Shown here in pieces: positions 929-61,675 of a stretch of DNA of 64,000 nt; position 1 is the stretch's first letter, and each line of letters starts with the position of its first letter. The DNA comes from Candidatus Dojkabacteria bacterium (GTDB lineage Bacteria > Patescibacteriota > Dojkabacteria > SC72): the NCBI GenBank assembly GCA_028694805.1, contig JAQVKD010000001.1, positions 25,549-89,548 of the forward strand, given 5' to 3'. Position numbers and translations under genes: made by a program. The notes under the pieces are model-generated. The model was given only the letters and a program-made list of their open reading frames with translations, did not search any database and was not told where the DNA came from.

Positions 929-1648
929 TTACCTCGTTGTTAGCATAACATATTCCTCAAGGTCAGGTCTGTATAATTCTAATTTTGGAATTTTCTTTTC
1001 TGTGAGTTGTTCAGTAGTTAATGATTTTATTGGTTTAAATATATATGATTTATTTGTTTCAACATTATGGTATAGAAAATGATATTTTGGCAGATAATAT
1101 ATTTCATCTGCTGCTGTTCCTACTTGTTGACGAATTTTTATTATGTCAGTCTCTAAGCTGAGTGAAAATATAAGTAAGTGCTCTGATTCAGATATTAGAG
1201 TATTATGAATATCTCTTGGTCTCTGACTTACGTTTATAATTCCAACATTATATGAACGTCCTTGTGTTGCTATTACTTTATGCCAATACTGTATCTTAGA
1301 AGGTGTTGTTATTAAAGCTGCTTCGTCGACATATAATGAGTTATCTTTCGAGTCAAAAATTATTTCACAGATACTATTAAAATCTCTGTCAGTAAGGTCA
1401 TCAGGCTGGTAAAGGATTTTATTGTATTTGGTTATGTTCTTTTTTAGTTCTCTTGGAGTATTTATTACTATATCATGTTCTACATCTGTATTTTCATGTT
1501 TAATATCCCAAAACACATATTTATCATAGTGCGGCAACAACCAATTTTTTGCTAAATGTGTCTTTCCTGAACCAGTTCTTCCAAATATTGCTACACGGTC
1601 ATTTGTTCTTATTCTTAAGTTATCTATTATAGTGAAATCAGTTACCAT
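929..1648 (-). CDS. P-loop ATPase, candidate genome-packaging ATPase (FtsK/HerA or A32-like)
   Basis: Walker A IFGRTGSGKTHLA near the N-terminus, Walker B LYVDEAALI about 85 aa downstream, and a QRPRD motif. The 239-aa size is typical of PRD1/A32-type packaging ATPases. Confidence 0.55.
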   Translation of the reverse strand: MVTDFTIIDNLRIRTNDRVAIFGRTGSGKTHLAKNWLLPHYDKYVFWDIKHENTDVEHDIVINTPRELKKNITKYNKILYQPDDLTDRDFNSICEIIFDSKDNSLYVDEAALITTPSKIQYWHKVIATQGRSYNVGIINVSQRPRDIHNTLISESEHLLIFSLSLETDIIKIRQQVGTAADEIYYLPKYHFLYHNVETNKSYIFKPIKSLTTEQLTEKKIPKLELYRPDLEEYVMLTTR

Positions 1649-18000: not shown

Positions 18001-18348
18001 GTCTAGACTTCTATATACTGTTCCCCCTACAGTTCCTATTATAGCAATTCCGCTTCCTAAATAGCTCATTGCTAATCCGCTATTTCCTATAGCGCTTGTA
18101 CTATTATACCAATTATTAAGACCGTAATCCGAGCTTCTGGTTATAGATGTTGATAAACCACATGCAACAACGATTCCTGCTCCACAATAAATTAATTTTC
18201 TATTAGCATAACCATTGATAAATGTATCAGTCCATACTACTCCAACATCGAATGGGAATTGATACGCTGGTCTATCTATACCAGCACTGCTAAAACTTGG
18301 AGGTGCTCCCCCACCTCCTGGTCTTTTATTTGGTACTATTTCTACCAT
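15043..18348 (-). CDS. fibre-like protein: N-terminal BNR/Asp-box propeller plus about 50 tail-fibre-like 14-aa repeats
   Basis: BNR motifs RSTDYGVTW, RSTDDGATF, RSTDNGSTW, RTTDFSVTW. Then NTF[VI]GxQ[AS]GxxNT[ST]G repeats, as in phage tail-fibre and trimeric beta-helix proteins. No signal peptide. Confidence 0.65.
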   Translation of the reverse strand: MVEIVPNKRPGGGGAPPSFSSAGIDRPAYQFPFDVGVVWTDTFINGYANRKLIYCGAGIVVACGLSTSITRSSDYGLNNWYNSTSAIGNSGLAMSYLGSGIAIIGTVGGTVYRSLDFGFSWTSVVGTPLAGFTDIFTSVYIGNGISIIGDGAGRVARSTDYGVTWVEIAGSPLSANILSSSAYLDNGVVLIGDSGGNIFRSTDDGATFSGVAGNPISGASIDSILYMRNQATIACDANGHIFRSTDNGSTWTDLGNVYGAGNFCTASAYLGNGIATLGISDGHIIRTTDFSVTWADLGAIAPSSIRSMVNASNGVVLFGTSDGHIWRSDIAFKLDEANRLIGITSEFDTIVGWDAGILSGPNGFNTIVGAESGSNITSGGENTLVGFTTGIGITTHSQNTILGALAGNSGASNVIIGWESGRLNTSSQSIFIGNESGELNTSGVNNVFIGYQSGRANSTTNNNTFLGYQSGLNNIASNNTFLGDRAGSTNTSGSSNTFVGELSGFTNSTGSGCTFIGTFTGFFNTVSNNTFLGSQSGQNTSTGASNTFVGQASGFNNTLGTQNTFVGVSSGFTNTTNSNSTFVGYNAGLLSTSAQNTFIGSLSGDANTSGTRHTFVGYQSGSAITTNSDCTFVGYQAGLVDTAASNTFIGSQAGDANTTGARHVFVGYQAGSAVTTNSDNTFIGYQAGAVDTGRSNTFVGSQAGAANTSGTGNVFIGDFSGVSNTTESQNTYVGSSTGFTGADNTFVGLFSGFGNSGNQNTFVGSQSGFNNTSGTRLAFVGYNTGFFSDTGSDNTFIGHQAGQNTGTSSNNTFVGSQAGSANTAAQNTFIGSSSGDANTTGTRNTFVGYNSGGANVTNTDCTFIGKDAGLLSTANFNTFIGSLSGDANTTGANNTFVGYQAGGAMTTSADSAFFGYEAGLVSTGTQNTFIGSQAGLAATTGTANVFLGYAAGSQSTTDSNKLYIANSNTTTPLIGGDFNTPGVTINKAVTPTSRLDINGSIALPVTADAVGLTLDITHFHIAATAGAGGITITLPTAVGITGRIYRIQRVDTGAGTVTVAAQAGENINAANTQTITTAQQWQTLEIISNGTDWIGNRLNAI

Positions 18349-21002: not shown

Positions 21003-22094
21003 TCAACCTGATATTATCATTAGACCAACAAGTGCTGCTCCGCCTAATAATAGGACTGCTTTATTTGTACATCCAAAAACAGGAATATATACATCACTTG
21101 ATAATGGACAAGTACCACCAAACAATCCTCCACTAAATTTGTTTAATATTAAATTTGGTAATTCTATATGTGTACCATTAAATCCAAGTGCCCATATTCC
21201 TATTCCAGCAAGATTTTTTTGATTAACTACATCATATTTTAATGATAATGACTGAGCATCATCATACCATCCTTGACCTGTTCCTGTAAGGTAATATGGT
21301 GATGACCATGTAGAGTTCCATTGTCTTCCGTATATTCCTGCTCTTATTAGTGCATTATTATAAGTGACAGATATACCAGAACCTATCGTTGGTGAATCTG
21401 GTTGTTGAGTTTGTGTTGTCCACTCATATCCGTAGTACGGAACTCCTAATAATAATTTAGAGTTCGGTATTGATTGTAGATATGTATTAATGCTATTTAT
21501 AACAGATGGTAATGGTGCAACTGCTCCTGCTGTCGGACCAGAAGCCCAGTGATAATCGTACCCCATCAGCATGAAATAATTTACATATGGTGATAAAGCA
21601 CTTGTATCAAATACATTTTCCCAATCTACTGGTGGAATATCTACTGATATTTTATAGTTACTATTTATTGAATGAAGTGCATTACTTAAAGATGTCATGA
21701 AAGTTGTAAACAATGTTCTATTTGATTGACCATTTACTGGATTAGTAGTTGGAAATCCTTCAAAATCAATATCTACTCCATCAAACCCATGTGTTTGTAC
21801 TTCGTATACTAGATTATTTATAAGAGTACTCTGGAGACCAGGAGATGATAGTATTGTATTTATAACAGGCGCTCCCCATCCAGGATTAACTGAAACTACC
21901 ACTCTTGTTCCTCTTGAATGAGCATAATTAATAAGATTTGTTGGAGGATATGATGTTTTAATTAACGAACCATCAGAATTCACTCCAAGAAAAGACCATG
22001 CTATCGTTGTTAATGTATTGTAATTTAAAGTTAGATAAAGATCTGATGACAACCAATTAGGATAGAATCCCATTACTTCTTTTGATAACGCCAT
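21003..22094 (-). CDS. GH18 chitinase-like glycoside hydrolase with C-terminal TM anchor
   Basis: FDGVDIDFE matches the GH18 active-site signature [LIVMFY]-[DN]-G-[LIVMF]-[DN]-[LIVMF]-[DN]-x-E. LMGYDYHW also present. C-terminal LLLGGAALVGLMIISG. Confidence 0.75.
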   Translation of the reverse strand: MALSKEVMGFYPNWLSSDLYLTLNYNTLTTIAWSFLGVNSDGSLIKTSYPPTNLINYAHSRGTRVVVSVNPGWGAPVINTILSSPGLQSTLINNLVYEVQTHGFDGVDIDFEGFPTTNPVNGQSNRTLFTTFMTSLSNALHSINSNYKISVDIPPVDWENVFDTSALSPYVNYFMLMGYDYHWASGPTAGAVAPLPSVINSINTYLQSIPNSKLLLGVPYYGYEWTTQTQQPDSPTIGSGISVTYNNALIRAGIYGRQWNSTWSSPYYLTGTGQGWYDDAQSLSLKYDVVNQKNLAGIGIWALGFNGTHIELPNLILNKFSGGLFGGTCPLSSDVYIPVFGCTNKAVLLLGGAALVGLMIISG

Positions 22095-22142
22095 TTACTT
22101 TCTACCTACTTTTATTAATTTTATTTATTTATAGTTCTTATA

Positions 22143-23540
22143 TCATCTTATTGCAATAAGTACTAGAAATATTCCTATTGTTGCAAACATGTAAGTTTCT
22201 TTCTTTATACATGTTCCAAAGAAATTTATATCGTTCGGTGAACATAATGTTAGTGGTGGTGTAATACATGCTGTTTGACATTCCTGAAGAGTTGAATATT
22301 GACCAGACGTTCCCTGTACTTGTACGCATTGATTGTTTATACAATTATAAGTTATTGTTGGGCATTGTACTCCAACAGTTGTACATTCATTAGTTCCAGG
22401 TCCAGAAACTTGAGCACATATATTATTTTGGCATATGTTATGATATTGACTAGGGGTACATATTTCTCCGCATGTATTTTCTGTGAAGCAACCTACAATT
22501 CCAGGAATACATATTGATGGAGTACAAATGTTATTTATACATTGATATGTTTGTATAGATTCACCAGAAAATTTATTTATAATTAAATTTGATAATTCTG
22601 TATGTGGAACATCATATCCCAAAGCCCATATTCCAATTCCTGCAAGTTGTTTTTGATTAACAAGATCATACTTAAAATTTAGGGATTCGGCATCTTCATA
22701 CCATCCTTGGTGCCACTGATTTCCTGTCTTATAAGTGTAATATGGCGATTTCCATGTAGAGTTCCACAGTCTTGTGTATTGTTGAATCTTTGTAACTGCT
22801 TGTGAATACATGAATGATGTTCCTGTTCCTATCGTTGGTGAATCTGGTTGTTGAGTTTGTGTTGTCCATTCATATCCATAATATGGAACTCCTAACAACA
22901 ATTTAGTTTTTGGTATTGACTGTAGATATGTATTAACGCTATCTACGACAGATTGTAATGGTGCGACAGCTCCTGCTGTTGGACCAGATGCCCAGTGATA
23001 ATCGTAACCCATCAGCATGAAATAATTTACATATGGTGATAAAGCACTTGTGTCAAATACATTTTCCCAATCTACTGGGGGAAGATTGATTGACAATCTA
23101 TAATTAGGATTTGCATTCCAGAATGTATTGCTGAGTTTTATTATAAAATTGGTGAATAAACTTCTGTTATTAGAACCATTTACCGTATTTATAGCTGGAA
23201 ATCCTTCTAAATCGATATCTACACCATCAAATCCATTTGTGCTTACTTCATATAATAAGTTATTTATAACTACATTTTGAATTGATGCACTTGCAAGGAT
23301 ATTATCTATTATTGGTGATCCCCATCCTGGATTTATAGAAACTACTACTTTCTTTCCTTTTGAATGTGCATAGTTAATGAGATTTGTCGGAGGATATGAT
23401 TGTTTAACAAGAGAACCATCTGACTGCACACCAAGGAAAGCCCATGCTATTGTTGTAATAGAGTCATAATTTAAATCTAGATATACATCTGGATTTAACC
23501 AGTTTGGAAGAAAACCAATAACTTCTTTTGATAATACCAT
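22143..23540 (-). CDS. GH18 chitinase-like glycoside hydrolase, Cys-rich knot region plus C-terminal TM anchor
   Basis: FDGVDIDLE signature. About 200 nt is identical to 21003..22094. A 90-aa Cys-rich segment, then FATIGIFLVLIAIR. Confidence 0.75.
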   Translation of the reverse strand: MVLSKEVIGFLPNWLNPDVYLDLNYDSITTIAWAFLGVQSDGSLVKQSYPPTNLINYAHSKGKKVVVSINPGWGSPIIDNILASASIQNVVINNLLYEVSTNGFDGVDIDLEGFPAINTVNGSNNRSLFTNFIIKLSNTFWNANPNYRLSINLPPVDWENVFDTSALSPYVNYFMLMGYDYHWASGPTAGAVAPLQSVVDSVNTYLQSIPKTKLLLGVPYYGYEWTTQTQQPDSPTIGTGTSFMYSQAVTKIQQYTRLWNSTWKSPYYTYKTGNQWHQGWYEDAESLNFKYDLVNQKQLAGIGIWALGYDVPHTELSNLIINKFSGESIQTYQCINNICTPSICIPGIVGCFTENTCGEICTPSQYHNICQNNICAQVSGPGTNECTTVGVQCPTITYNCINNQCVQVQGTSGQYSTLQECQTACITPPLTLCSPNDINFFGTCIKKETYMFATIGIFLVLIAIR

Positions 23541-29272: not shown

Positions 29273-30148
29273 TTAATCTCTCCCTCCCATCATCATTAAT
29301 AAAAGAAATCCTGCAGCTCCTATAAATAAATAATTTTTAGGAACACAGTTTCCAAGTATACATAAATTTTTATCTGAAGGACAAGTTGCCGGATCGCATC
29401 CACCTCCGGATGGTGGTATTGTTTCTTGTACTTTTACAATTACAGTATTTGGTAAGTCAGAATCAGAAGTCAAACAATGTTCAGCACCTGACCATGCACA
29501 ACACCATCTACAAACAAGTGTATATGTTCCTATAACATTAAGGACAAACGATGTTGATCCACATCCATTTGCATCAAATACATGCACACCATTATCAACT
29601 CTTATGTCTCCAACTCCTATTGGATTTCCAGATATTGCAACTATTCTCCACTTTGGTGTTATTCCCAAACAATATGCGGTAGTTGACCTTACAGATGCTG
29701 TTAGTAAATCACCAGGTTTTACTATGAGAGAAGACTTTCCGTTCACTAAAAATGAGTTATCTTGTTGTGTACATGTCTGAGAAGTTGTTGCTGTAATAGA
29801 TTTACATCCAGTACCAGATTGACCGTTTGAACTACATATAGTATTTCCGCTTGCATTATATATTACAAACCACACTATGGTATATGTTCCTGCAGGAACA
29901 GGTTTAATAAATGGTTCTGATATAAATGTTCCTGATGTCTGACCGATTACAGTGGTCATTAAAGGTGTGAAGAAACTAAAATAAGCTCCAGTTGGCAATT
30001 GAATTTTTAGTTCTGCCTTATACGAAATTCCTCCTTCCCCTGCAGAAAATGAAACATCACATGCAACATTAACAGTATCATTTGAACCAGCATTGCATGT
30101 ATTTCTATTTCCATTTACTGTAAAATAACCTGATGTTATGTTACACAT
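29273..30148 (-). CDS. Cys-rich protein with CVPKNY-TM C-terminal module
   Basis: C-terminus GGGCDPATCPSDKNLCILGNCVPKNYLFIGAAGFLLLMMMGGRD. Confidence 0.55.
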   Translation of the reverse strand: MCNITSGYFTVNGNRNTCNAGSNDTVNVACDVSFSAGEGGISYKAELKIQLPTGAYFSFFTPLMTTVIGQTSGTFISEPFIKPVPAGTYTIVWFVIYNASGNTICSSNGQSGTGCKSITATTSQTCTQQDNSFLVNGKSSLIVKPGDLLTASVRSTTAYCLGITPKWRIVAISGNPIGVGDIRVDNGVHVFDANGCGSTSFVLNVIGTYTLVCRWCCAWSGAEHCLTSDSDLPNTVIVKVQETIPPSGGGCDPATCPSDKNLCILGNCVPKNYLFIGAAGFLLLMMMGGRD

Positions 30149-30167
30149 TTTGTTTACCTCTTATATT

Positions 30168-30938
30168 TCATTTAATCATTTTCAATAAAAATAATGCTAC
30201 AATTCCTGCTCCTGCGTATACAACATATGTTTTTGGAACACAGCTTCCTAATACACAGAAATTTTTGTCAGATGGACATGTAACTGGATCGCACGTAGTT
30301 CCTCCTCCACCTCCTCCTCCTGTCGGAACGCATGTTGTTCCTTGACATATATAACCGGCTGGACACGGTGGAACACATCCTCCTCCACCACTTGACGTGA
30401 AAATAGCGTATAAATTTCCTGATGGCTGTGTTACTGTTCCTGTGAACGGATTTCCTGTTGTACTTTGAGAGCAACTTGCATCTGTACAGTATTTACTAAA
30501 GCTATATCCTGATGAAGGTTTTGCTACAAAGCTAAATACATCATTTATAAAGAAATTGATTGTCTGTGATGTTGTTACTGTTGTTACTTTTCTTGTATTT
30601 CTGTATACATCTACTGTTCCACCTACATTATTTTGAATATATACAGTTATTGTTGCTTGCGTTCCACTGAAATAAACACCTAGATAACCATCTTGTGATA
30701 TTGTTCCACTAAAAGGATTAGAGGTTGTAGATAAAGAACATCCAGTATCAGCACAGAACTTATTAAATGAAAACCCTAGTTGAGTATCAGGATATGCATA
30801 AAAAAAGAACGTATCTCCTACATTGTATTGAACTGGAACTATTCCGTCTCCTGGATTAACTACAGCAACAATACTTCCGTTACGACTTGCTTGAAGAGTT
30901 CCACGTCCTTCAACTATTTCAATGTTTACTGTGACCAT
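30168..30938 (-). CDS. protein with two tandem beta-sandwich-like domains plus CVPKTY-TM C-terminal module
   Basis: Internal duplication: FSFNKFCADTGCSLSTTSNPFSGTISQDG versus YSFSKYCTDASCSQSTTGNPFTGTVTQPSG. C-terminus TCDPVTCPSDKNFCVLGSCVPKTYVVYAGAGIVALFLLKMIK. Confidence 0.55.
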   Translation of the reverse strand: MVTVNIEIVEGRGTLQASRNGSIVAVVNPGDGIVPVQYNVGDTFFFYAYPDTQLGFSFNKFCADTGCSLSTTSNPFSGTISQDGYLGVYFSGTQATITVYIQNNVGGTVDVYRNTRKVTTVTTSQTINFFINDVFSFVAKPSSGYSFSKYCTDASCSQSTTGNPFTGTVTQPSGNLYAIFTSSGGGGCVPPCPAGYICQGTTCVPTGGGGGGGTTCDPVTCPSDKNFCVLGSCVPKTYVVYAGAGIVALFLLKMIK

Positions 30939-30947
30939 TTATCCATC

Positions 30948-31472
30948 CTATATTTTATTTGTTACATATAATTCTAACGACTTTATATATAAAGGTGTGC
31001 TTCCTTTGTATACATAAGTGTAGTTATATACACCATTCCCTTTTACATCATCGGTGTCCCATACCGTTGTAAATACTGTTCCATAATTTGGACAGGAAGG
31101 AAATCCTACATAAATAGGGATTTCGTTATTTACTATTCCTATTGTTGGAAGTGCTGATTGATTATTCACATATGCATATATTTTTCCATAACCTTCGGAT
31201 GTGCTACATACATTATGAAATCGTATATCTACTATATCAATTGTTTTATCAATAGGAAGATTAAATGTTATGTTTAGATTTATAGACTCACCATCATTTA
31301 GAACTAACATATAGGAACGAGACTCTATGAATTGCCAGTGCTTACATATTAATGAATTTACACTTAAAGTATATGTATATTTACTTGATTGAGGTATTTG
31401 TGATGCTGATTTATTCATTAATAGTATGGCACCTAAACCTATAAATCCTGCAATGATCCAATTTTTGTCCAT
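30948..31472 (-). CDS. N-terminally anchored hypothetical protein
   Basis: N-terminal TM or signal sequence IIAGFIGLGAILLM. Confidence 0.45.
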   Translation of the reverse strand: MDKNWIIAGFIGLGAILLMNKSASQIPQSSKYTYTLSVNSLICKHWQFIESRSYMLVLNDGESINLNITFNLPIDKTIDIVDIRFHNVCSTSEGYGKIYAYVNNQSALPTIGIVNNEIPIYVGFPSCPNYGTVFTTVWDTDDVKGNGVYNYTYVYKGSTPLYIKSLELYVTNKI

Positions 31473-31500
31473 TTGATATCATTTATTTTGTTAAGTTTCT

Positions 31501-32355
31501 TTATCGTTTTATTAACATCATTAATAAAAGAAATCCTGCAGCTCCATAAACATATGTCTTAGGTTGACAACCAAATCCTATGAATGATAAACAAAATTCT
31601 TTGGTTGGATCACATGATGGAACGCATCCTTGTGCTCCATCACCTCCTCCTGTACATAAATTATTACAGTTTGATGTCGTATATATACCAGATCCATCAC
31701 AGTTATCTGATATACATTGCGTTCCTATACATTTATATTTTGGAGTTGTACATGAAGGATTACAAACATTATTACAATTTGATGTCGTATATATACCAGA
31801 TCCATCACAGTTATCTGATATGCACTGTGTTCCCGTACATTTATATTTCGGGGTAGTACATGAAACACAAGATCCGTTCTGACATATATTAGTCGATGGA
31901 CATGCGTTACATCCGTATGTGCATGCAGGTTCTCCTAACCACTTGCATATTGTTTTATTATCTGCGCAGTATGTTTGACCACTTGTAGGTTGACATGGTT
32001 GAAATGAACCTACATTAAGTGATCTGCATGAATTAGGCGTTCCTGACGCTTCGCAGTACAGCGGAACTACCTGTACAAGATCAATGAAATAGTTTCCCAC
32101 TGAAGAGAGATAACCTATCACTGCATCAAATATATATGTTCCAGAGGAAGATACGTTCACACTATTACTGTTGACTGATGCATAAGTTCCGTCAGGTTTT
32201 TTATACCTGAACCATACATGAATAGAACCATATGCAGAGTCTGAATATAATCTTGCCTTACATCCAATCAAATCAGAACCAGATGCACTACACGAACTTC
32301 CTGATAACATGACTCCGCTTTTTGTGAATCCATAATCCTGTATTGTACAACCCAT
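31501..32355 (-). CDS. Cys-rich protein with duplicated TTPKYKC(T/I)GTQCISDNCDGSGIYTTSNCNN module and CQPKTY-TM C-terminus
   Basis: Exact 33-aa duplication. C-terminus EFCLSFIGFGCQPKTYVYGAAGFLLLMMLIKR. Confidence 0.55.
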   Translation of the reverse strand: MGCTIQDYGFTKSGVMLSGSSCSASGSDLIGCKARLYSDSAYGSIHVWFRYKKPDGTYASVNSNSVNVSSSGTYIFDAVIGYLSSVGNYFIDLVQVVPLYCEASGTPNSCRSLNVGSFQPCQPTSGQTYCADNKTICKWLGEPACTYGCNACPSTNICQNGSCVSCTTPKYKCTGTQCISDNCDGSGIYTTSNCNNVCNPSCTTPKYKCIGTQCISDNCDGSGIYTTSNCNNLCTGGGDGAQGCVPSCDPTKEFCLSFIGFGCQPKTYVYGAAGFLLLMMLIKR

Positions 32356-33104: not shown

Positions 33105-33737
33105 TCATCTCATTCCGTACATCTTATAGATAGGCGAATCTGCCTTGTCCGTTGCCATTTGACCGTAATATACCTGCCTTCTTATTCTCTGGTAATAATC
33201 TTCTGCAGGTAATATTGAAGGTGCTGCGTTAATTCTGTCTATTGAATTAACTTGTGCCATCGATTGCTGATGTGGGATTGCACCATAAGTTCTGTTAGAT
33301 GACTGGTTAGCCTGCTGTAATTGTTGTAATTGTAGTTGTGATTGTTCTTGCTGCATCTGAAGTTGTGATTGTGTTTGAGATAATTTCTGTTGCAATATTC
33401 TGTACTCTTTGCCTTGTAATGTTATGTTTACATTTGCTGGATTAACTCCTTTGTTTGTTAATCTAATAAGAACATCATACCCTACACTTCCTATTGCTGC
33501 TGCAGCTGCTCCATCAAGACCCATCTTAGTAAATAGATAATACAATCCAAGTTTTGGAGCATTATTAGCAGCTCCTGCTATTATTTTATCAGATGTAGCT
33601 GCAGTGTCTGGTAAGTTTGGTTTTATCTGTTGTTCTACATAACGACCGGAAAATCCACTTACTATGAATCCTCCGCCTATTACAGCCATGTCCTTTGCCA
33701 TTTCTGTATATCTTATTCGTTCTCTATATTCTGCCAT
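33105..33737 (-). CDS. YGMR-family protein (Gly-rich N-terminus, Q-rich coiled coil, C-terminal YKMYGMR)
   Basis: MAEYRER...GGGFIVSGFSGR...VLIRLTNKGVNPANV...YKMYGMR. Paralog of 38012..39055. Confidence 0.55.
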   Translation of the reverse strand: MAEYRERIRYTEMAKDMAVIGGGFIVSGFSGRYVEQQIKPNLPDTAATSDKIIAGAANNAPKLGLYYLFTKMGLDGAAAAAIGSVGYDVLIRLTNKGVNPANVNITLQGKEYRILQQKLSQTQSQLQMQQEQSQLQLQQLQQANQSSNRTYGAIPHQQSMAQVNSIDRINAAPSILPAEDYYQRIRRQVYYGQMATDKADSPIYKMYGMR

Positions 33738-34256: not shown

Positions 34257-34997
34257 TTAAAACATCCTTGCATTTTTGTTACCCAATACATTTCTATGTA
34301 ACTTATTCCAAAGTGCTGGAAGTGAAACGTATTTAGTTTTCTTATAAAATTTTATCACTGCATCTTCATATCTATTCATGTCGTATTCTGCTTCTCCTAC
34401 AGTCTTACCTTCTAATAATGCCTTCAGAAACACTAAATGTATGTCACGAAATATATCTTGAGAATGTATACTATCTACAGGAAATAACATTAAATCTGTA
34501 TATCCACTGTAAACTTCAGCTCCATAACGTATAGCACATTTTCCTAATTGACTTGCGCTATAACATGCTACAGTAAACACTATTGTATCTTTTAATAAGT
34601 TGACATTTGTTTCGTTCATACACAATGGATTACAAATATCAGGCATTGCTAAACATGTGTTTACACACCCAGATGAATATATTAAAGGTTTAATTATTTC
34701 ACGTAAATTTGGCATGTTTAGTAACTCATCTATATCAAACTTTCTTGTTATTACACATTCGCTCTGTCCTTGAATGCTAGATGGACATCCATGAGAAAAT
34801 GTAACTACGAGTCTTGGTCTGTAATATTGCAAAGATTTTGTTACATTGTTATATGTGACTTCGTTTTTCTTTATGTCGATAACAGTGTAACCATAGCTTT
34901 TCATCATCTTGTATGCTTTCTCAGCCCAGTCATATGTATGAATTGTTGGATCGTTTTCCTTTCTAGGTCTTAAAAGAACTATTGTTGAATTATTCAT
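34257..34997 (-). CDS. putative caspase-like (clan CD) cysteine peptidase
   Basis: VVTFSHGCPSS (His-Gly) and VFTVACYSAS (Ala-Cys) resemble the clan CD catalytic dyad context. The fold assignment is inferred. Confidence 0.3.
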   Translation of the reverse strand: MNNSTIVLLRPRKENDPTIHTYDWAEKAYKMMKSYGYTVIDIKKNEVTYNNVTKSLQYYRPRLVVTFSHGCPSSIQGQSECVITRKFDIDELLNMPNLREIIKPLIYSSGCVNTCLAMPDICNPLCMNETNVNLLKDTIVFTVACYSASQLGKCAIRYGAEVYSGYTDLMLFPVDSIHSQDIFRDIHLVFLKALLEGKTVGEAEYDMNRYEDAVIKFYKKTKYVSLPALWNKLHRNVLGNKNARMF

Positions 34998-35016: not shown

Positions 35017-35556
35017 TTATTTCAGCTTCAATTCTTCTTTCCTAAAGTTTTCATTTATTACTTTATCTACATTTAAGTATAACTCCTCTTCGTCTCCTTC
35101 ATTTTTTTCAATTAAGATATTTTCAATATCAACAAATTGTTTAGCTTTATGTTGACAATTTGTTCCAGGATTGTTTTTTATCATACAAGTTACTTTTCCG
35201 TCCTTCGGTGAACCTATACAACTAACATCGTTTTGTTCATGGCAGTTACTGAATATGTCTAGTGCACTTGGTTCATCTGATGATGTTGTAACATGACTAT
35301 GAAATGTACCAACGGGTTTTTTTCCTCTTTCTCTGCATTCTGACTGAAATTTTATGTATCTTTCTTCACTATGAGAACTCTGAGAATGTTCTTGACCAGG
35401 ATATATCTTACTAGTTTTTTCATCAAGACATAAAGTAAAACCGTGTTCTTTATCAGTATCTTGAGTCTTTTCTATTAGCTTACTCATCTTTAATACTGTA
35501 GTGTCAGAAAAGACATATTTTCCAATTCGTTGATCTCTATGTTTGTTAGTTTTCAT
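35017..35556 (-). CDS. JAB/MPN+ (JAMM) metalloprotease-domain protein
   Basis: EHGFTLCLDE ... HSHVTTSSDEPSALD (E...HxHx8Sx2D). Confidence 0.6.
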   Translation of the reverse strand: MKTNKHRDQRIGKYVFSDTTVLKMSKLIEKTQDTDKEHGFTLCLDEKTSKIYPGQEHSQSSHSEERYIKFQSECRERGKKPVGTFHSHVTTSSDEPSALDIFSNCHEQNDVSCIGSPKDGKVTCMIKNNPGTNCQHKAKQFVDIENILIEKNEGDEEELYLNVDKVINENFRKEELKLK

Positions 35557-35559
35557 ATA

Positions 35560-36105
35560 TTAAAGTATCTTCTTACTCTTAAACTTCTTCTCTGTGAAAT
35601 TATCAACAGCGTTTAATAATGCAGTTTTCACTGTTTCTCTGTCTACAGGATCGATATATACATAAGTATCTTCGATGTCAACAAATGGTTTAGCTTCATC
35701 TTGACACGACTTACCTTGATTTCTTTTAATGTAGCACTCTATTTCTCCTTTTTTATTCATTCCTACACAATCAATTTTTGATTCTTCATCACAACTGCTA
35801 AGCAAGTCCATTGCTGAAAATCGAGTTTCTGATGGTCGTGGATGAGTGTGATAACTTCCAATATATTTATCATGCTTTCCTTTACAAGTTTCAGGAACCA
35901 TTATGCTTACATAATCCCCAACCGATGACTTCCCAGGAACCACCTTTCTATCCTCACTTAAACATAAAGCCATTCCATGTTCTTTTCCATTTACAGCAGT
36001 TTTATGATTAAGTTCATTCATCTCTCTAATTGTTTCTTTTGGAATGAAGAACGAATTAACTATTTCGTCGCCTGTCTTTTTAGTATGTTTAGTTCCCTTA
36101 TGCAT
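35560..36105 (-). CDS. JAB/MPN+ (JAMM) metalloprotease-domain protein
   Basis: EHGMALCLSE ... YHTHPRPSETRFSAMD is the canonical E...HxHx7Sx2D JAMM motif. Tandem paralog of 35017..35556. Confidence 0.7.
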   Translation of the reverse strand: MHKGTKHTKKTGDEIVNSFFIPKETIREMNELNHKTAVNGKEHGMALCLSEDRKVVPGKSSVGDYVSIMVPETCKGKHDKYIGSYHTHPRPSETRFSAMDLLSSCDEESKIDCVGMNKKGEIECYIKRNQGKSCQDEAKPFVDIEDTYVYIDPVDRETVKTALLNAVDNFTEKKFKSKKIL

Positions 36106-36152: not shown

Positions 36153-36617
36153 TTATTTTTTACCCATCATCAATAAAGCTAATACTCCACCACCGACTAT
36201 TAAATACTTATTTTGAACTCCTGCAGTACAACCATTCCATATTCCTGTTCCGCATTCAGTAGCTGCTGTTGGGAAAGAAGATATAGCACTATCTACTACA
36301 GGTTGAGGAAGCGTGTTATCAGATGCAGGTGTTCCATCCTTATTTGTCTTTTCTATTGTAATTCCATTACAATCTATTGTAATCCCAGGAGTTTTCACTA
36401 CTGTTATCAAATAATTATAATTTGGATCTGACTTATTTACATATGCAAGTATATATACTGCAAAAACCGAAACCTCATACCATCCATCACCAACGTATAT
36501 ATTTATATGAGGGAGACTTACTACAAGCTTTGAATCTATTGTTTTATTTTTAATAGCATCAATAATTTGTTGCTCTCGTGGAGTACATGTCTGCAGAGAA
36601 TTATATTTATAGTTCAT
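36153..36617 (-). CDS. hypothetical protein with C-terminal TM anchor plus KK
   Basis: C-terminus YLIVGGGVLALLMMGKK. ATG at 36615-36617; the track start is TTG. Confidence 0.5.
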   Translation of the reverse strand: MNYKYNSLQTCTPREQQIIDAIKNKTIDSKLVVSLPHINIYVGDGWYEVSVFAVYILAYVNKSDPNYNYLITVVKTPGITIDCNGITIEKTNKDGTPASDNTLPQPVVDSAISSFPTAATECGTGIWNGCTAGVQNKYLIVGGGVLALLMMGKK

Positions 36618-36778
36618 CAATATTCCTCCTGTAAAATTTTCTCAATACTCTTTAACTTTTTTCCTATTTCACTATCTGCTTCTATTTCTTCTTCTAGTTG
36701 ATCTACAGTTAAAGTAGTTGCTCCTGCACATATCTTCGTGTTCTCTAAATCATCACGTGTCAACTTTTCGTACTTCAT
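36617..36778 (-). CDS. small acidic protein (53 aa), not in ORF track
   Basis: AAGGAG SD. MKYEKLTRDDLENTKICAGATTLTVDQLEEEIEADSEIGKKLKSIEKILQEEY. The stop overlaps the downstream start (ATGA). Confidence 0.4.
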   Translation of the reverse strand: MKYEKLTRDDLENTKICAGATTLTVDQLEEEIEADSEIGKKLKSIEKILQEEY

Positions 36779-37283: not shown

Positions 37284-37316
37284 TATAGAGATATTGTATC
37301 CACAACAATATCTCTA
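37284..37316 (-). terminator. 13-bp perfect inverted repeat (7-nt loop) followed by a T-run on the minus strand
   Basis: atagagatattgt-atccaca-acaatatctctat. The minus strand then reads agaattttttatttg. Lies just downstream of 37336..37950. Confidence 0.5.
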
Positions 37317-37335
37317 TTTGCAAGTTATTATTGAT

Positions 37336-37950
37336 CTAACTTGTCCAGAGGTCAACTTCAAGAGCAAACTTGATATGGGTAGTGTCTATCTGTATATCAG
37401 GTAATATAGGTCCACCTGTTGGACTTTCACCGACTACATACAAGAACCAGTGCTCTTCACCATTCAACTCAATTCCTTGAGTGAATCTGTAATATTCACT
37501 ACTGGTCTTAAACTGGTGACCAAGCTGAGTACCGACTGCTGCTATTCTCTGTTTAGTTATTGACACATCCTGGTAGAATGGTCTTGCTAACTGAACAAGG
37601 TCTTCAGTTGTTTTCTCTTTGGTGATTCGTATTTTTGTCAGTGGACTGATTTCCTGATCTGTTGTGCCTGCAAGTCTGACTCTCAGTGCATGCGCAGTGT
37701 TGAAATCCTGTCCTGCAGGTACTTGCTGAGTACCCATAATTGACATCTTCTGCCCAGCTGGACATCTCACATCAATAACAGCAGTTGTATTTCCTACTGG
37801 TCCACCTGTCAAAGTTACTATTCTTGTGTTCTTTTCATCAAGAACAATCTGTGATCTTCTCCATCCCAAGCTTTCCAGATACTCCACATAAGAAGTATAG
37901 TCCGGTTTAGCACTTCTTCCGTAAGCCTGCATTGAATTTATTTCTGCCAT
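37336..37950 (-). CDS. putative structural protein, PLTKIRITK family (paralog 1 of 3)
   Basis: VIDVRCPAGQKMSIMGTQQVPAG...PLTKIRITKEKT...GPILPDIQIDTTHIKFALEVDLW aligns along its whole length with 43332..43976 and 42530..43090. Confidence 0.55.
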   Translation of the reverse strand: MAEINSMQAYGRSAKPDYTSYVEYLESLGWRRSQIVLDEKNTRIVTLTGGPVGNTTAVIDVRCPAGQKMSIMGTQQVPAGQDFNTAHALRVRLAGTTDQEISPLTKIRITKEKTTEDLVQLARPFYQDVSITKQRIAAVGTQLGHQFKTSSEYYRFTQGIELNGEEHWFLYVVGESPTGGPILPDIQIDTTHIKFALEVDLWTS

Positions 37951-38011: not shown

Positions 38012-39055
38012 CTACCTCATTCCGTACATGTCGTACATTACTCCAAGACCCTTGTCCTGCATTTGACCAAAGAATCTCTGACGTTCTGTCTTTTCAGTGT
38101 GCTGCTCAAATGGCATTGCACCATACGGCATCGAACCGAATTTTCTTTCTCTTTCTACAACCTGAGGACTCTGTTCAAATGGCATTGTGCCATATCTTCT
38201 CTGTCTCTCCATTACATCTGGAGTCCAGGGAAGCTGGTTTATTGGACCGATCTGCTGTGTAGCTCCTGGAGTATATCCTGTTTCAGGAAGCCACGGAATT
38301 CCTGCAGAATTTGGATTTGGCATTGCACCATATTCTCTCTGCCTTTGCTGAACTGCAGGACTTGCATCCCCAGCATACCTAAAATCTGCAGATGAATCTG
38401 CTCTGTAAGGTGTCTGTCTTACATAAGACCGATAGTCTTGCCACTCACGAGTAGCTGTCGGTGGTGTTGGAGCAGGTGGGTTCTGAATTATTGTTCCAGG
38501 TTCTGCTAATCCCTGTCCAGGAAATCTTCCAGGTGGTATTTCAGTTCCAGGCATTGAAGGAGATGGTGGATATGTTCCAGGTCCAGCTAATTTCTGAAGA
38601 GCTTTATTTAACTCTGTTCTCAGAATACTATTTTCTTGAACAAGCTTCTGTACAGTAGCTGGATTCATTCCATTTCCAAGTACTCTATATCCTGCCATTC
38701 TAACATCATAAGGATTAACTCCTTTATTTGCCAATCTCAGGACTGAGTCATACACAACAGAACCCGCAAGAGACTCTGCTGCCTTCTTTGCCATTGGATG
38801 CTTCGCATCAAATTTCTTTGCTAAGACATACGCACCAGCTTTGGCACCATTGTTAGCCGCCCATGCAAGAACTTTTTTAGTAGCAGATGATGTTTCATCA
38901 ACCTGTCCTGATGCAGTGGCTGAATCCTTAACAAGAGAAGTTTCTATTGCTCTTCCTATTGCACCGCCTACTATAAAGCCGCCACCTATTCCTATACCAT
39001 CGCCAGCAACTTCATTAGCAAATGCCTTTAAATCTCTTTCTCTATAATAAGCCAT
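38012..39055 (-). CDS. YGMR-family protein (Gly-rich N-terminus; RQRRYG/MPFEQ repeats; C-terminal MYDMYGMR)
   Basis: MAYYRER...GGGFIVGGAIGR...SVLRLANKGVNPYDV. Repeats ERQRRYGTMPFEQ, ERERKFGSMPYGAMPFEQ, ERQRFFGQMQ. Confidence 0.55.
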   Translation of the reverse strand: MAYYRERDLKAFANEVAGDGIGIGGGFIVGGAIGRAIETSLVKDSATASGQVDETSSATKKVLAWAANNGAKAGAYVLAKKFDAKHPMAKKAAESLAGSVVYDSVLRLANKGVNPYDVRMAGYRVLGNGMNPATVQKLVQENSILRTELNKALQKLAGPGTYPPSPSMPGTEIPPGRFPGQGLAEPGTIIQNPPAPTPPTATREWQDYRSYVRQTPYRADSSADFRYAGDASPAVQQRQREYGAMPNPNSAGIPWLPETGYTPGATQQIGPINQLPWTPDVMERQRRYGTMPFEQSPQVVERERKFGSMPYGAMPFEQHTEKTERQRFFGQMQDKGLGVMYDMYGMR

Positions 39056-41104: not shown

Positions 41105-42487
41105 TCATAACTTCTCAAACACCTCAACCCATTTATCCACGATCTTAGACCATGTATAATTATAAGAAAACTTGATACATTCATCTTTAATTTTTTTATC
41201 TTCCTTATCCCAATAAGAATGCATTTCTATCATAGCTTCAGATAATTTCTTTTCATTTATTAAACCCCTATAAATTCCATCAGGAAGCATTTGCAATTCA
41301 CAATCTACAAGTATTCCTCTTTTTTTATCTTTTCCTATTAATTCAGGAAACGAACAAATGTTTGTTCCTATATTTGGAACACCACATGCCATGCTTTCTA
41401 ATGTAGGCAAGTTAAACCCTTCCCCGCTACTACTACTTATGTGACAATCAAATATGTTATATAATCTACAAAGAGCCTGTTCAGACCATCCAGTTCCTCT
41501 TCCTCCACTATATGAAAATATTACATTTTTCTCTATTCCTAACTTTTGAACTATTCTCATTAGATTTAATCCAACATTACTAATTGGAACTGTATGTAAC
41601 CATAAAACTGTTCTATCAGTTAATCTTCTATCATCTTTTATCGTTAACTGATAAGCCTTCAACAATCTTTCAATTCTTTTTCTTATTCCAAAATTAGCTC
41701 CTACAAAACCAAAAACATATCTACCTTTTACAATTTTCCTTAATAGACTAACTAGATAATATCCATATATAAATCTTTTTTCAACATCATCCCACTTCAT
41801 TATTCCAACTTCTTCTTCAATGGACTCAACACATAATTCATGATTATCACAGCAAGTCCAGCAACAATTTTCAAATAAAAAATCAGGATTTATTTCTGTC
41901 TTTCCTTCATTTATCATATACCAGCAGTAATCAGCACTATCTAATTCACTATCAGTTAATTTTTTAAATATTTTTTCATTATATCCATGATATACAGTAT
42001 CAAGTACATCAATGCCATTCTTCATTAATTGAGTTGCTCCCCAATTACATTGAGCAACTACTTTCCCCCCACTGTCAGTAAATCTCTTTAATGATTTAAA
42101 ACTTCCAATTCCTAATCCTAATCCATCAACTGGAACATACCATATTCTTTTTGTTATTCCAGCTTGCAAAGGAATATCCAACAGAAAATCCATATCACCT
42201 GTATCACTACCGAATAAATTAAATACTATATCAGGCTTTATTTCCATTAAAGTAGCAAAATATGACGCTTCTTCTCCAATGTGTTCATTTGCAATAGGAT
42301 AACACTCAATTCCATAGTCCCACGTCTTCATATATCCGGAATTGAGACCTGTCATTGTACATTCATAACCTCTCTTTTTTAATTCCAAGATTATGTTCTT
42401 AGTTACATTAGAGAATCCACTATTTCTTTGAAGTGTGTCTGATAGAAAGTGAATTCTTAGATTTTTTGTCATTATTTTTTTACCCAC
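41105..42487 (-). CDS. GT-B glycosyltransferase (GT4-like)
   Basis: SGEGFNLPTLESMACGVPNIGT contains the E-x7-E motif of retaining GT4 enzymes. Confidence 0.65.
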   Translation of the reverse strand: MGKKIMTKNLRIHFLSDTLQRNSGFSNVTKNIILELKKRGYECTMTGLNSGYMKTWDYGIECYPIANEHIGEEASYFATLMEIKPDIVFNLFGSDTGDMDFLLDIPLQAGITKRIWYVPVDGLGLGIGSFKSLKRFTDSGGKVVAQCNWGATQLMKNGIDVLDTVYHGYNEKIFKKLTDSELDSADYCWYMINEGKTEINPDFLFENCCWTCCDNHELCVESIEEEVGIMKWDDVEKRFIYGYYLVSLLRKIVKGRYVFGFVGANFGIRKRIERLLKAYQLTIKDDRRLTDRTVLWLHTVPISNVGLNLMRIVQKLGIEKNVIFSYSGGRGTGWSEQALCRLYNIFDCHISSSSGEGFNLPTLESMACGVPNIGTNICSFPELIGKDKKRGILVDCELQMLPDGIYRGLINEKKLSEAMIEMHSYWDKEDKKIKDECIKFSYNYTWSKIVDKWVEVFEKL

Positions 42488-42529: not shown

Positions 42530-43090
42530 TTACGGTAATTCCCACATATCTAAATCAAGGGTAAATTTAATTTTATTTACATTTATATCTACACTTGGTT
42601 CTATTGCATATATAACTAAATGGTCTTCATTTTTAAGTTCACAACTTTGTTCAAACCTATACAATTGAGCATTGTTCTTAAATTTTGGTTTTGTATCCAC
42701 ATGATTTTTAATGTTAATATCAGAATATTGCATCTTTCCAACTAAAATAATCGTTTCAGATGCTCTTTCTTTTTTTATATGTATTTTAGTAGTTAAATCA
42801 ATTTCATTATCATTATTGTCTAAAAGAATAACTTTTAACGAATGTGCAGCCTTTGGATCAGTGCCCTTTGGAACTTGTCCAACGCCATATACACTTATTT
42901 TCCATCCACATGGACATCTTATATCTATAACAGGTCCAGTACAGCCTTTACTTAAACCTGAAAGAGTTACCAGTCTTTTGTTGGCTTCATCAAGACATAT
43001 CTGATTTCTTATGCAATTATTACTTTCCATATATCTTATATATTCATCATATGTCCTGAAATTTGAATAAGTTTTCATCTTTACCTCCAT
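42530..43090 (-). CDS. putative structural protein, PLTKIRITK family (paralog 2)
   Basis: VIDIRCPCGWKISVYGVGQVPKG...LTTKIHIKKER...NKIKFTLDLDMWE. Confidence 0.5.
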   Translation of the reverse strand: MEVKMKTYSNFRTYDEYIRYMESNNCIRNQICLDEANKRLVTLSGLSKGCTGPVIDIRCPCGWKISVYGVGQVPKGTDPKAAHSLKVILLDNNDNEIDLTTKIHIKKERASETIILVGKMQYSDINIKNHVDTKPKFKNNAQLYRFEQSCELKNEDHLVIYAIEPSVDINVNKIKFTLDLDMWELP

Positions 43091-43344
43091 TAAAAATCAT
43101 CTACACGTCGAGCTATCTTAGATGGTTCAGTTTTAATATCTTTAGCTAGATATTTTATTTCATCAAGTTGTTTTTTTAATTTATTGTCTTTATACTTTTC
43201 AAGCAATGTCGAGTCTTCAGCCAGTTTTATTTTTAAGATTGCTCTTATTGCATTATCATCTAATAGAGACATTCTTCTAATATACTTTATATGGTTTTCT
43301 ATGAATTCGATTTCAGTGTCTTGTTCTGAGTTCATTTTTTCCAC
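43090..43344 (-). CDS. small helical hypothetical protein
   Basis: 84 aa, charged. Confidence 0.35.
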   Translation of the reverse strand: MEKMNSEQDTEIEFIENHIKYIRRMSLLDDNAIRAILKIKLAEDSTLLEKYKDNKLKKQLDEIKYLAKDIKTEPSKIARRVDDF

Positions 43345-43976
43345 CTATCTATTTCTAATGAGAATTTTATATGGTTAGAATCTATTTCTATGTCTGGTAA
43401 AATAATTCCTTCTTCACGAGTTTCACCTACAACAAAAATAAACAGATGATATTCTCCACATAGTTCAACGATTTCATTAAATCTATACCATCTTGAAACA
43501 TCTTTAGATTTTCCATTTTCATTGATACTAACATCAAAATAGCGTAGACTATCTAGTTGAACAATATCATCATATGCTGTCGCTTTGGTGATACGTATTT
43601 TTGTCAGCGGATGTACTTCAAATCCTTCTGTATTACATAATTCAATTCCAAGAGGATATGCTGTTCTTTGATCATCTCCCATTAGAACGTCTTGAGTTCC
43701 CATGATTGAATATATTTCTCCTGGAGGACAATAAAAATCGACAACACATGAAGTAATTCCAATGTGACAATCTCTAATGACAGCGTCCTTTTCAGTGAGA
43801 GTTTTATGAGTCATTATCCGACCCATACATTCCATATAATCAATGTAATTATTATAATTAATTTTATTTTCTTTCACAACTTCTCTTTTAATATCACATG
43901 GAAGTGTTTCTTTCTTGCCTACATATTTTTTGTACTCTATATAATCTTCCTCGGTTTCTATTCTTTTATTGAACAT
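43332..43976 (-). CDS. putative structural protein, PLTKIRITK family (paralog 3)
   Basis: VVDFYCPPGEIYSIMGTQDVLMG...PLTKIRITKATA...GIILPDIEIDSNHIKFSLEIDRW. Confidence 0.55.
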   Translation of the reverse strand: MFNKRIETEEDYIEYKKYVGKKETLPCDIKREVVKENKINYNNYIDYMECMGRIMTHKTLTEKDAVIRDCHIGITSCVVDFYCPPGEIYSIMGTQDVLMGDDQRTAYPLGIELCNTEGFEVHPLTKIRITKATAYDDIVQLDSLRYFDVSINENGKSKDVSRWYRFNEIVELCGEYHLFIFVVGETREEGIILPDIEIDSNHIKFSLEIDRWKK

Positions 43977-59995: not shown

Positions 59996-61675
59996 CTACG
60001 GTATATTTGGCATTACCACTACACCAATAACAGTGTTTGGATAGCCATCTTTACTTGCCGTTACAGTTATTATTCCTGCGGTCGATGCTACCACATCTTC
60101 TATAACAGCATTTCCATTTTCATCTGTTGTTGCATGTCCAGATGCTGCACCGGTTAAGTCAATATTTACATTTTCTATTCCAACATTGTTCACTTTCACT
60201 ATGAAAGTTAGATCAGTAGGAACTCCTACTTTTATAATTGATGGTTCTTCTTTGACATCCAAAGTTGGGGTAGAAGTTCCACCATTGCCATTACCACCAT
60301 TTTCACATGGATTAGCTGGTTGCTGGCATGGCTGAGGTGTTGGTGTTGGTTCGTTGCACGTGTTCGGACATGGGGTCGGTGTTGGTGTTGGTTCGTTGCA
60401 CGTGTTCGGACATGGGGTCGGTGTTGGTGTTGGTTCGTTGCATGTGTTTGGACATGGGGTCGGTGTTGGTGTTGGTTCGTTGCATGTGTTTGGACATGGG
60501 GTCGGTGTTGGTGTTGGTTCGTTGCATGTGTTTGGACATGGTGGTGGCGGTGGTGTGCACGGATTTCCGCAAGGAGGTACTGGTGGCGGGTTAGGTGTAT
60601 TAGCTGTTGCTATTCCTGATACTGATGCATGACTGTGAAGAATCTCACATGCATTATCGTATGCTGTTACAACTACTCCACCGACATAAGTAAGGGTATA
60701 TCCTCCAGGAATGTTAGCTATTGCCAGTGAAAGCGAATTTCCATTTGCTGTTGCATGATCATCTGCAGCAGCTATTATTCCACTGTTAGCTACTGCACCA
60801 GATCCGACTGCTACTGATGTTGCAGTTCCAACCGATGAACTTGCCGTGTTTGCTTGTGCATTTGCTGACGAAGATGCAGTACCTCCATTAATTCCATAAC
60901 TCACTGCTGCTGCATTAGCATTTGCATTATTGGTTGCAGTGGATGTTGTCACTGAATTTGCGTTTCCATTATTAACACCTACTGATGCAGATGTTGATGT
61001 TGCAACACTTCCAGTGTGAGCATCTGATGCTGACACAGAGTTAGCTGTTGATCCGTAAGATGCTTCGGATGTACTTACAGACGTTGCATGACCTTTCGTA
61101 TCAGCATTTGCATTCGAAGCAGAGTTTGCATTGCTAAGATGTGTTGCAGATGCAATTGACTGAGCATTTGCAGTTGTAGCGATTCCATTTGCACTGGCAA
61201 TTGAATTCGCATTTGCTGAAGACCAGTCACTTGCTGTTGCTGCTGATGCTGCATTTGATGCTGCCTTATTTGCAGCAGTTGTTAAAGCATCTGATGTTGC
61301 AATGCTATTCTTAATTGCTGACGACGCAGCACTTGATGTTGATGTTCCACCGTTAACAGTAGTTGCTCCTGCATTTGATGTAGCTACTGAGCTGTCTACT
61401 GCTATTGATGTTGCTGATGCATCAGATGTTCCGCTATTAACTGTATTTGCATTCGCATCTGCTGTTGCTACACTTCCATGATTTGACGTAGCCTGTGCAT
61501 CAGAATGTGAAACACCACTTCCAGTTGCCTGAGAACCAGAGGTAACAGCCGACGTCGAGCCATCAGAGGCTATTGCCGTTCCTGTTGATGTTGAAGATGC
61601 TGCAAGTGCAAACGGAGATGCTACTAAAAGCAACACCATTGCAAACACAGCAATTTGTACACTGTTTTTATTCAT
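59996..61675 (-). CDS. secreted Ala/Ser/Thr-rich protein with (TPTPTPCPNTCNEP)x5 repeat and C-terminal Ig-like domain
   Basis: Signal peptide MNKNSVQIAVFAMVLLLVASPFALA. 39-bp tandem repeat. The C-terminal domain is similar to the N-terminal domain of 58179..59795. Confidence 0.6.
   Translation of the reverse strand: MNKNSVQIAVFAMVLLLVASPFALAASSTSTGTAIASDGSTSAVTSGSQATGSGVSHSDAQATSNHGSVATADANANTVNSGTSDASATSIAVDSSVATSNAGATTVNGGTSTSSAASSAIKNSIATSDALTTAANKAASNAASAATASDWSSANANSIASANGIATTANAQSIASATHLSNANSASNANADTKGHATSVSTSEASYGSTANSVSASDAHTGSVATSTSASVGVNNGNANSVTTSTATNNANANAAAVSYGINGGTASSSANAQANTASSSVGTATSVAVGSGAVANSGIIAAADDHATANGNSLSLAIANIPGGYTLTYVGGVVVTAYDNACEILHSHASVSGIATANTPNPPPVPPCGNPCTPPPPPCPNTCNEPTPTPTPCPNTCNEPTPTPTPCPNTCNEPTPTPTPCPNTCNEPTPTPTPCPNTCNEPTPTPQPCQQPANPCENGGNGNGGTSTPTLDVKEEPSIIKVGVPTDLTFIVKVNNVGIENVNIDLTGAASGHATTDENGNAVIEDVVASTAGIITVTASKDGYPNTVIGVVVMPNIP
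60336..60535 (-). repeat. 39-bp tandem repeat x5 (coding)
   Basis: Unit tgttggtgttggttcgttgca(c/t)gtgtt(c/t)ggacatggggtcgg. Confidence 0.85.

Follow-up and report, generated by a model that had tools for sequence, protein, structure and literature searches.

A tandem pair of JAB/MPN+ proteins encoded beside a caspase-like protease among the putative virion genes of a large virus-like element

A JAB tandem next to a caspase-like gene

We analyzed 64,000 nucleotides of contig JAQVKD010000001.1 (hereafter the window), which make up half of a 128,474-bp virus-like contig, and focused on two adjacent minus-strand genes whose products, JAB-A and JAB-B, carry the motif of JAMM metalloproteases, together with the gene that follows them. 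JAB-A (35560..36105, 181 amino acids (aa)) was assigned as a JAB/MPN+ protein from its open reading frame (ORF), a family alignment, an AlphaFold2 (AF2) model and a Foldseek search; JAB-B (35017..35556, 179 aa) is its paralog and has an intact JAMM motif (HSH...S..D). The two genes are separated by 3 nt, and 19 nt separate JAB-B from a 246-aa ORF on the same strand (34257..34997) that encodes a caspase-like (clan CD, CHAT-like) cysteine protease with a putative H69/C145 dyad. An initial annotation of this DNA had reported two tandem ORFs with the E...HxH...S..D motif, and both were found as described. It had also placed a His/Cys-dyad protein upstream of the pair and a membrane-anchored protein downstream. 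Both neighbors exist, but since all genes in this region lie on the minus strand, these directions are reversed: the His/Cys gene is 3' (downstream) of the JAB genes and the anchored gene lies upstream.

JAB-A and JAB-B share 33% identity over 177 residues (E 4e-30). The motif consists of E42, H86-T-H88, S97 and D100 in JAB-A and reads EHG...HSH-VTTSSDEP-S-AL-D in JAB-B, with eight residues between the second histidine and the serine in both proteins, one more than in the canonical seven-residue spacer. A search of 5.8 billion proteins recovered 28 JAB-A homologs (51-100% identity, ~180 aa), all of them unannotated metagenomic proteins, and in the alignment of 28 JAB-A family members E42, H86, H88, S97, D100 and six cysteines are invariant. 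Across JAB-A relatives, conservation of the motif is far above chance level. JAB-B belongs to a rarer, faster-evolving clade with only three close homologs, and orthologs of it are present in two related loci, L001 and L019. Read by eye, neither protein has an N-terminal hydrophobic segment.

Library matches and predicted fold

The best Pfam match of both proteins was PF14464 (Prok-JAB), at 24.8 bits for JAB-B and 20.6 bits for JAB-A, both under the gathering cut-off of 25, and PF01398 (JAB) matched neither; among the two models that the initial annotation had proposed, the former therefore came out as the closest, if subthreshold, one. A newer Pfam build does flag JAB-B and two relatives. At E<=0.01, PF14464 matched 15 of 49 relatives (best E 2.1e-5), and the RadC model matched a single member of these 49, weakly. 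The PADLOC Cap3/JAB models gave marginal matches to JAB-A (E 0.019-0.027 over ~25 residues) and nothing for JAB-B, and no family was found for either protein in PHROGs or NCBIfam. INPHARED phages, queried at nucleotide and protein level with the region, JAB-A and the putative capsid protein described below, yielded zero matches, and a scan of JGI metagenomes with family profile A1 returned 5 loci only. JAB-B is, however, labeled 'Mov34/MPN/PAD-1 family protein' by NCBI, so the bare domain call is already known.

Sequence searches of the PDB with the single JAB proteins or the close-family profile gave only spurious matches (FixL, APP, PHO23). The broad family profile A3 alone reached AMSH, Cap3 and MPN chains (E 0.03-0.08), and in its alignment the catalytic residues of AMSH-LP are matched by E, HTHP, S and D; the metal ligands, whose absence upon proper alignment would have refuted the assignment according to the initial annotation, are thus retained.

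The alignment-based AF2 model of JAB-A (predicted local distance difference test score (pLDDT) 88.9, predicted template modeling (TM) score 0.82) matched exclusively JAB/MPN proteins in the PDB when searched with Foldseek at E<=1e-3. These matches comprise AMSH/STAMBP, AMSH-LP, Sst2, Cap3 (9ild), the Prp8 Jab1 domain, Rpn11 and a bacterial deubiquitinase for ubiquitin-like proteins (Ubls) (8tyx, Bil DUB), with TM scores of ~0.44 and identities of 12-20%, and fold matches in BFVD include annotated JAB-domain proteins. By predicted fold and by motif, JAB-A and JAB-B are members of the JAB superfamily, like JAMM metalloproteases. Motif conservation and the fold search on the predicted structure thus both support the designation 'JAMM/MPN+ metalloprotease' in the initial annotation.

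A cysteine-rich, virus-specific branch of the JAB superfamily

We searched 1.84 billion representatives exhaustively with a family profile and recovered ~446 clusters, counted at 50% identity, with E<=1e-3; 86 clusters reached E<=1e-10. Most members are 160-230 aa long, with the domain beginning at the N-terminus and no signal peptide visible by eye. E/H/H/D was kept in 151 of 159 single-domain relatives. Cysteines come and go in pairs: among 159 members, which are not phylogenetically independent, Cys61 and Cys66 (JAB-A numbering) were both present in 92, one was present in 8 and neither in 59, and the corresponding counts for Cys105 and Cys134 were 55, 23 and 81. This paired gain and loss suggests that the cysteines form disulfides or serve as paired metal ligands. 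We read 13 distinct loci for genomic context, 11 of which form a close clade and 2 of which (L010, L011) represent the wider family. Taken together, the family is a virus-specific, Cys-rich branch of the JAB superfamily for which the searched sources give no functional name, except for the generic label of JAB-B.

Five relatives (P0108, P0165, P0205, P0166 and P0224) are fused multi-domain proteins in which the N-terminal copy lacks HxH (HVL, HVY, RVY or RAY at this position) and the C-terminal copy retains HTH...S..D. Because this MPN-/MPN+ arrangement is that of Rpn8-Rpn11, a two-MPN dimer may be the working unit here too.

Two candidates from these searches were set aside. P0196 (675 aa, with SpaA-type repeats) was rejected as a family member, being a false positive of the profile search. 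A JAB-A homolog at 1543-3417 of L014 contains an in-frame TAA at a conserved Lys codon; stop-codon recoding was rejected as its explanation. The L014 contig looks chimeric, with an unrelated N-terminal region running into the JAB-A homolog, and the TAA is probably an assembly or sequencing artefact.

The caspase-like protein

The initial annotation had proposed a clan-CD peptidase at 34257-34997, and both family conservation and predicted structure bear this out. We found 70 homologs (38-72% identity), in which H69-G70-C71 and C145 (in 'VACYSA') are invariant and the H69-G70 and A144-C145 motifs are invariant or near-invariant. The acidic residues D16 and D175 are also invariant, which is compatible with a pocket for a basic P1 residue. 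The AF2 model (pLDDT 83.8) matched SAVED-CHAT (E 3.4e-5), caspase-1/-4/-11, CED-3, gingipain R and a C11 peptidase in Foldseek. No Pfam, NCBIfam, PADLOC or PHROGs model matched the protein, and a scan of IMG/VR with its profile found no relatives. Among GTDB genomes, one 4.8-kb contig ('uncultured bacterium') matched and gives no host clue.

Conserved gene order and variable JAB copy number

Hidden Markov models built here revealed a shared arrangement, P122–REP–putative capsid protein–S53–JAB(0-2)–caspase-like gene, which recurs in 8 or more independent virus loci. The caspase-like gene is a core gene of the lineage and always single-copy. S53 (36617..36778, minus strand), a conserved 53-aa protein, precedes the JAB and caspase-like genes in every related locus. 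The putative major capsid protein (37336..37950, minus strand, 204 aa) is conserved, and its assignment is by position and conservation only; it had no match to a PDB sequence or phage record, and no tie to a jelly-roll fold was obtained. Its paralogs (~200 aa) are encoded at 42530-43090 and 43332-43976.

Directly after the putative capsid gene lies a terminator-like hairpin with a 13-bp stem and a T run (37285..37317, minus strand), which outranks every other terminator-like site in the 8.5-kb stretch scanned. The downstream unit that starts at this hairpin includes PEGA, S53, JAB-A, JAB-B and the caspase-like gene, and no terminator-like site was found on the coding strand from the hairpin (37317..37285) to ~32700, past the REP2 gene described below. 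The two JAB genes and the caspase-like gene are thus probably expressed late, on a common transcript, within a morphogenesis block.

JAB copy number varies. Two tandem copies (A and B) were found in the window, L001, L019, L013, L014 and a 6.7-kb contig carrying P0003 and P0249; a single copy was found in L003, L004, L015/L016, L017 and L006, the L006 copy being located 3' of the caspase-like gene. L008 has no JAB copy within the 12.7 kb read and keeps REP and its motifs. The more distant L011 encodes three or more copies as well as fragments; a small thioredoxin is also encoded on this contig. JAB-A is about as conserved as the core genes in L001 and L019, with identities of 66-69%; the putative capsid protein reaches 57-58% there and the caspase-like protein 63-67%.

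Between S53 and JAB-A lies the anchored gene (36153..36620, minus strand), whose sequence predicts a 155-aa protein with a C-terminal hydrophobic anchor (...YLIVGGGVLALLMMGKK). It belongs to a series of Cys-rich proteins (29273-32355 and 36153-36620) that have similar C-terminal hydrophobic anchors (…GAAGFLLLMM…K/R) and the motif C..C.P.C…FC..G.C.PK before the anchor.

Repeat proteins flanking the three genes

The JAB-A/JAB-B/caspase-like trio is flanked by two paralogous proteins, REP1 (38012..39055, minus strand) and REP2 (33105..33737, minus strand). REP1 has a Gly-rich hydrophobic N-terminus and C-terminal ERQR[RK]YG[AS]MP repeats; REP2 has the same N-terminus, and both proteins end in ...MYGMR and contain a helical, possibly coiled-coil stretch (read by eye). 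REP proteins each contain two to four copies of ERQR[RK]-[YF]G-[AS]MP and have the conserved C-terminus ...M[FY]GM[QR]. In the REP proteins of the window and of L001 (6980-7771 and 12355-13020), the tandem repeat reads ERQR[RK]YG[AS]MP(FEQSP), and in L001 it is triplicated almost exactly. REP2 was found only together with a JAB tandem, being present in the window, L001 and L019 and not in L003, L004, L006 or L008. Since the three loci with REP2 form one subclade, this link is weak evidence and may reflect a single evolutionary event.

The carrier element

The window has a GC content of ~33%, and its transcription runs in a single direction. It encodes a packaging ATPase of the PRD1 P9/STIV B204 type (929..1648, minus strand, 239 aa), which matched PHROG 2666 (9e-34) and STIV B204 in the PDB (2.6e-4) and, in tblastn searches, the packaging ATPases of PRD1-like tectiviruses and of Haloarcula icosahedral viruses. 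We found neither a terminase nor a portal nor an HK97 capsid protein in the window. A tail module gave no strong match there either: a Phage_base_V match in 11572-13662 scored 16.9 bits, below the cut-off, and the 'tail spike' PHROG match at 15043-18348 is a repeated-domain match of 8 stretches. A D5-type primase-helicase, beta-helix proteins and glycosyltransferases are also encoded. Given the type of packaging ATPase and the lack of a detectable terminase, portal or HK97 capsid gene, the element has the appearance of a tailless virus of very large size within the PRD1/STIV packaging-ATPase lineage.

Related loci lie on contigs of 85, 92, 173 and 179 kb, and no relatives of the lineage were found in IMG/VR or INPHARED. 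The carrier may belong to a lineage of very large tailless viruses that has so far gone undescribed, binned in a 'Candidatus Dojkabacteria' metagenome-assembled genome. Shine-Dalgarno analysis was discarded as a host clue, as it does not separate a bacterial from an archaeal host.

Comparison with known JAB and clan-CD systems

As a rule, JAMM/MPN+ enzymes are associated with ubiquitin-like systems. The only ORFs ending in or near Gly-Gly were membrane anchors and antisense ORFs, in agreement with the initial annotation, which had found no Ubl-like ORF with a Gly-Gly tail nearby. No ThiF/E1, E2 or Ubl Pfam match was obtained among the scanned window ORFs >200 aa, and no NlpC/P60 domain was found in the window. 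Precomputed Pfam matches likewise gave no Ubl, E1 or E2 gene within 10 kb in L001, L003, L004, L006, L008 or L019. Wherever context was read, members of this JAB family lie on virus-like contigs with no Ubl or E1 nearby in the loci examined, and in one lineage they are locked beside a conserved caspase-like protease among virion genes.

Like the proteins described here, Prok-JAB (PF14464), Cap3 and Bil DUB are small stand-alone domains with E...HxH...S..D. Unlike them, JAB-A and JAB-B have the eight-residue spacer, extra Cys pairs and a C-terminal helical extension, are encoded by a virus within a structural gene block, and have no E1/E2, CD-NTase or Ubl neighbor in the window. AMSH, AMSH-LP and Sst2 were the top structural matches of JAB-A (E 7e-5 to 1.4e-4) and are similar in size (~180 aa). 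However, the TM score is ~0.44 at 16-20% identity, there is no MIT domain or ESCRT context here, and the second zinc site of AMSH is a His3Cys site from which the Cys pattern of JAB-A and JAB-B differs. The adjacent paralogs and the fused MPN-/MPN+ relatives recall the paired MPN domains of Rpn11-Rpn8, CSN5-CSN6 and BRCC36-Abraxas. In contrast with those MPN+/MPN- heterodimers, both window copies are MPN+, the MPN-/MPN+ arrangement being confined to the fused relatives, and proteasome, CSN or BRISC partners are absent here.

The initial annotation had compared the pair to archaeal JAMM1 and to phage tail-assembly JAB proteins, and neither likeness was supported. HvJAMM1 and PfJAMM1 are likewise compact single-domain MPN+ enzymes, but no solved JAMM, the JAMM1 structures included, was matched significantly by the sequences of JAB-A and JAB-B, and SAMP and UbaA, as well as any other Ubl or E1, were not found in the window. 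Lambda tail assembly protein K is likewise a JAB protein encoded among the morphogenesis genes of a prokaryotic virus. It combines JAB with NlpC/P60 and is accompanied by the Ubl-like protein I, whereas the JAB proteins here are single-domain, the window lacks NlpC/P60, a Ubl neighbor and tail genes, and its packaging ATPase is of the PRD1/STIV type rather than tailed-phage machinery.

The caspase-like protein shares its fold and its His-Gly and Ala-Cys motifs with SAVED-CHAT, caspases and gingipain; in contrast with SAVED-CHAT, it is a stand-alone protein of 246 aa without a SAVED sensor domain. In position it resembles adenain of adenoviruses and nucleocytoplasmic large DNA virus-like viruses, likewise a conserved cysteine protease beside capsid genes in the PRD1-adenovirus lineage. 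Since adenain belongs to clan CE and not CD, a maturation role of the caspase-like protein would be analogous and not homologous to that of adenain.

Possible roles of the JAB pair and the caspase-like protease

The reading we find most plausible, while rating it somewhat short of probable, is that a JAMM heterodimer and the caspase-like protease act on virion proteins during assembly. Both JAB-A and JAB-B would be zinc (iso)peptidases of the JAMM/MPN+ type, catalytically intact and belonging to the virus-specific family, and would pair with each other into a heterodimer, the form in which JAMM enzymes usually work. The pair and the caspase-like protease would jointly process virus structural proteins, either in the cytoplasm or in the assembling particle. 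The best candidate substrates would be the membrane-anchored repeat proteins REP1 and REP2: the dibasic sites in their ERQR[RK]↓YGxMP repeats would be fitting targets for a clan-CD enzyme with Arg/Lys specificity, and their conserved C-termini, ...M[FY]G-M[QR], look like the short tails removed after Gly by JAMM enzymes. If virion proteins are indeed processed in this way, the genes would represent new maturation machinery for the PRD1-adenovirus lineage, whose eukaryotic members use the unrelated clan-CE adenain. A more far-reaching version appears rather unlikely to us, namely that very large tailless, probably membrane-containing viruses (85 to 179 kb or more) with a PRD1/STIV-type packaging ATPase possess a hitherto unknown two-class capsid or core maturation system of JAMM metallo- and clan-CD cysteine proteases, with the MPN+/MPN+ tandem and the MPN-/MPN+ fusions capturing, inside a single viral family, the origin of enzyme/pseudo-enzyme MPN heterodimers.

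Several observations weigh against a role in virion-protein processing. The variation in JAB copy number, from none in the 12.7 kb of L008 through one in several loci to at least three plus fragments in L011, gives the JAB genes more the look of accessory genes than of genes for an indispensable maturation enzyme, and L008 retains REP and its motifs without a JAB gene nearby. The association of REP2 with the JAB tandem may, as noted, be one event in one subclade. Canonical JAMM enzymes cut isopeptide bonds after the Gly-Gly of a beta-grasp protein, and no such partner was found in the window. We know of no maturation protease from prokaryotic PRD1-like viruses, and the capsid assignment of 37336-37950 is itself putative.

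The same copy-number variation, with tandem duplications and fragments in L011, is typical of arms-race genes and fits the main rival explanation, in which JAB-A and JAB-B are made during assembly and act as counter-defense deconjugases that strip host Ubl marks (of the Bil type or the Cap2-mediated type of type II CBASS, an anti-phage system that signals through cyclic oligonucleotides) and thereby shield the particles. The structural neighbors of JAB-A include Cap3 (9ild) and the bacterial Ubl-deubiquitinase 8tyx, both JAB proteins have full catalytic motifs, and expression beside virion genes would fit a defense aimed at virion proteins. Cap3 is a JAB isopeptidase that acts on conjugated cGAS (PMC10097602). 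However, the PADLOC Cap3/JAB models were marginal for JAB-A (E ~0.02) and silent for JAB-B, the JAB genes occupy a fixed position beside a core protease in the structural block rather than an early or accessory region, and JAB-A is conserved like the core genes. We therefore regard deconjugation of host marks as possible but on the unlikely side; if it occurs, these proteins would be a new class of viral counter-defense against bacterial ubiquitin-like immunity. On either this explanation or virion-protein processing, the carrier viruses look like an unrecognized group of unusually large tailless viruses.

The intact JAMM motif is also what classical Ubl processing would require, as in lambda K/I, archaeal JAMM1-SAMP or CysO/Mec, and since the window covers only half of the 128,474-bp contig, a Ubl and perhaps E1/E2 could be encoded elsewhere on it. 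We consider this improbable: JAB genes adjoin their Ubl or E1 in known systems, whereas the 64 kb contain no Gly-Gly-tailed ORF other than membrane anchors and antisense ORFs, no E1, E2 or Ubl match among the scanned ORFs >200 aa and no NlpC/P60 fusion, and precomputed Pfam matches show no such genes within 10 kb in the six related loci. Slightly less probable still is a non-proteolytic role, in which the proteins would be MPN scaffold subunits of a virion or assembly complex or would, like RadC, be JAB proteins directed at nucleic acid. In favor of such a role, scaffolding is what many MPN domains do, the fold matches of JAB-A include Prp8 Jab1 and Rpn8, the fused relatives contain an inactive copy, and the conserved Cys pairs suggest a stabilized, possibly virion-borne protein. 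E/H/H/D is nevertheless retained by both window copies and by 151 of the 159 single-domain members, which favors catalysis over a scaffold role, and the lone weak RadC match among 49 members argues against a RadC-like function. Beyond the existing domain label, the novelty lies in how large the family is, the cysteine signature that marks it, the MPN pairs seen both in tandem and as fusions, the association with a caspase-like protease and the unusual carrier virus.

Other genes of the element

The window also contains a GH18 glycosidase tandem (21003-23540), a GIY-YIG nuclease tandem (62233-63350) and a 599-aa S8 subtilase with Big_2 domains (53116-54915), indicating that the element carries further hydrolases and proteases. 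A GC-rich island at 59996-61675 (42% vs ~32%) holds an orphan 559-aa ORF without a Pfam or PHROG match. The glycosyltransferase encoded at 41105-42487 (460 aa) has no intein, and its ortholog in the 92-kb relative (L001, 1607-4219) is an 870-aa protein with intein-splicing and LAGLIDADG domains.

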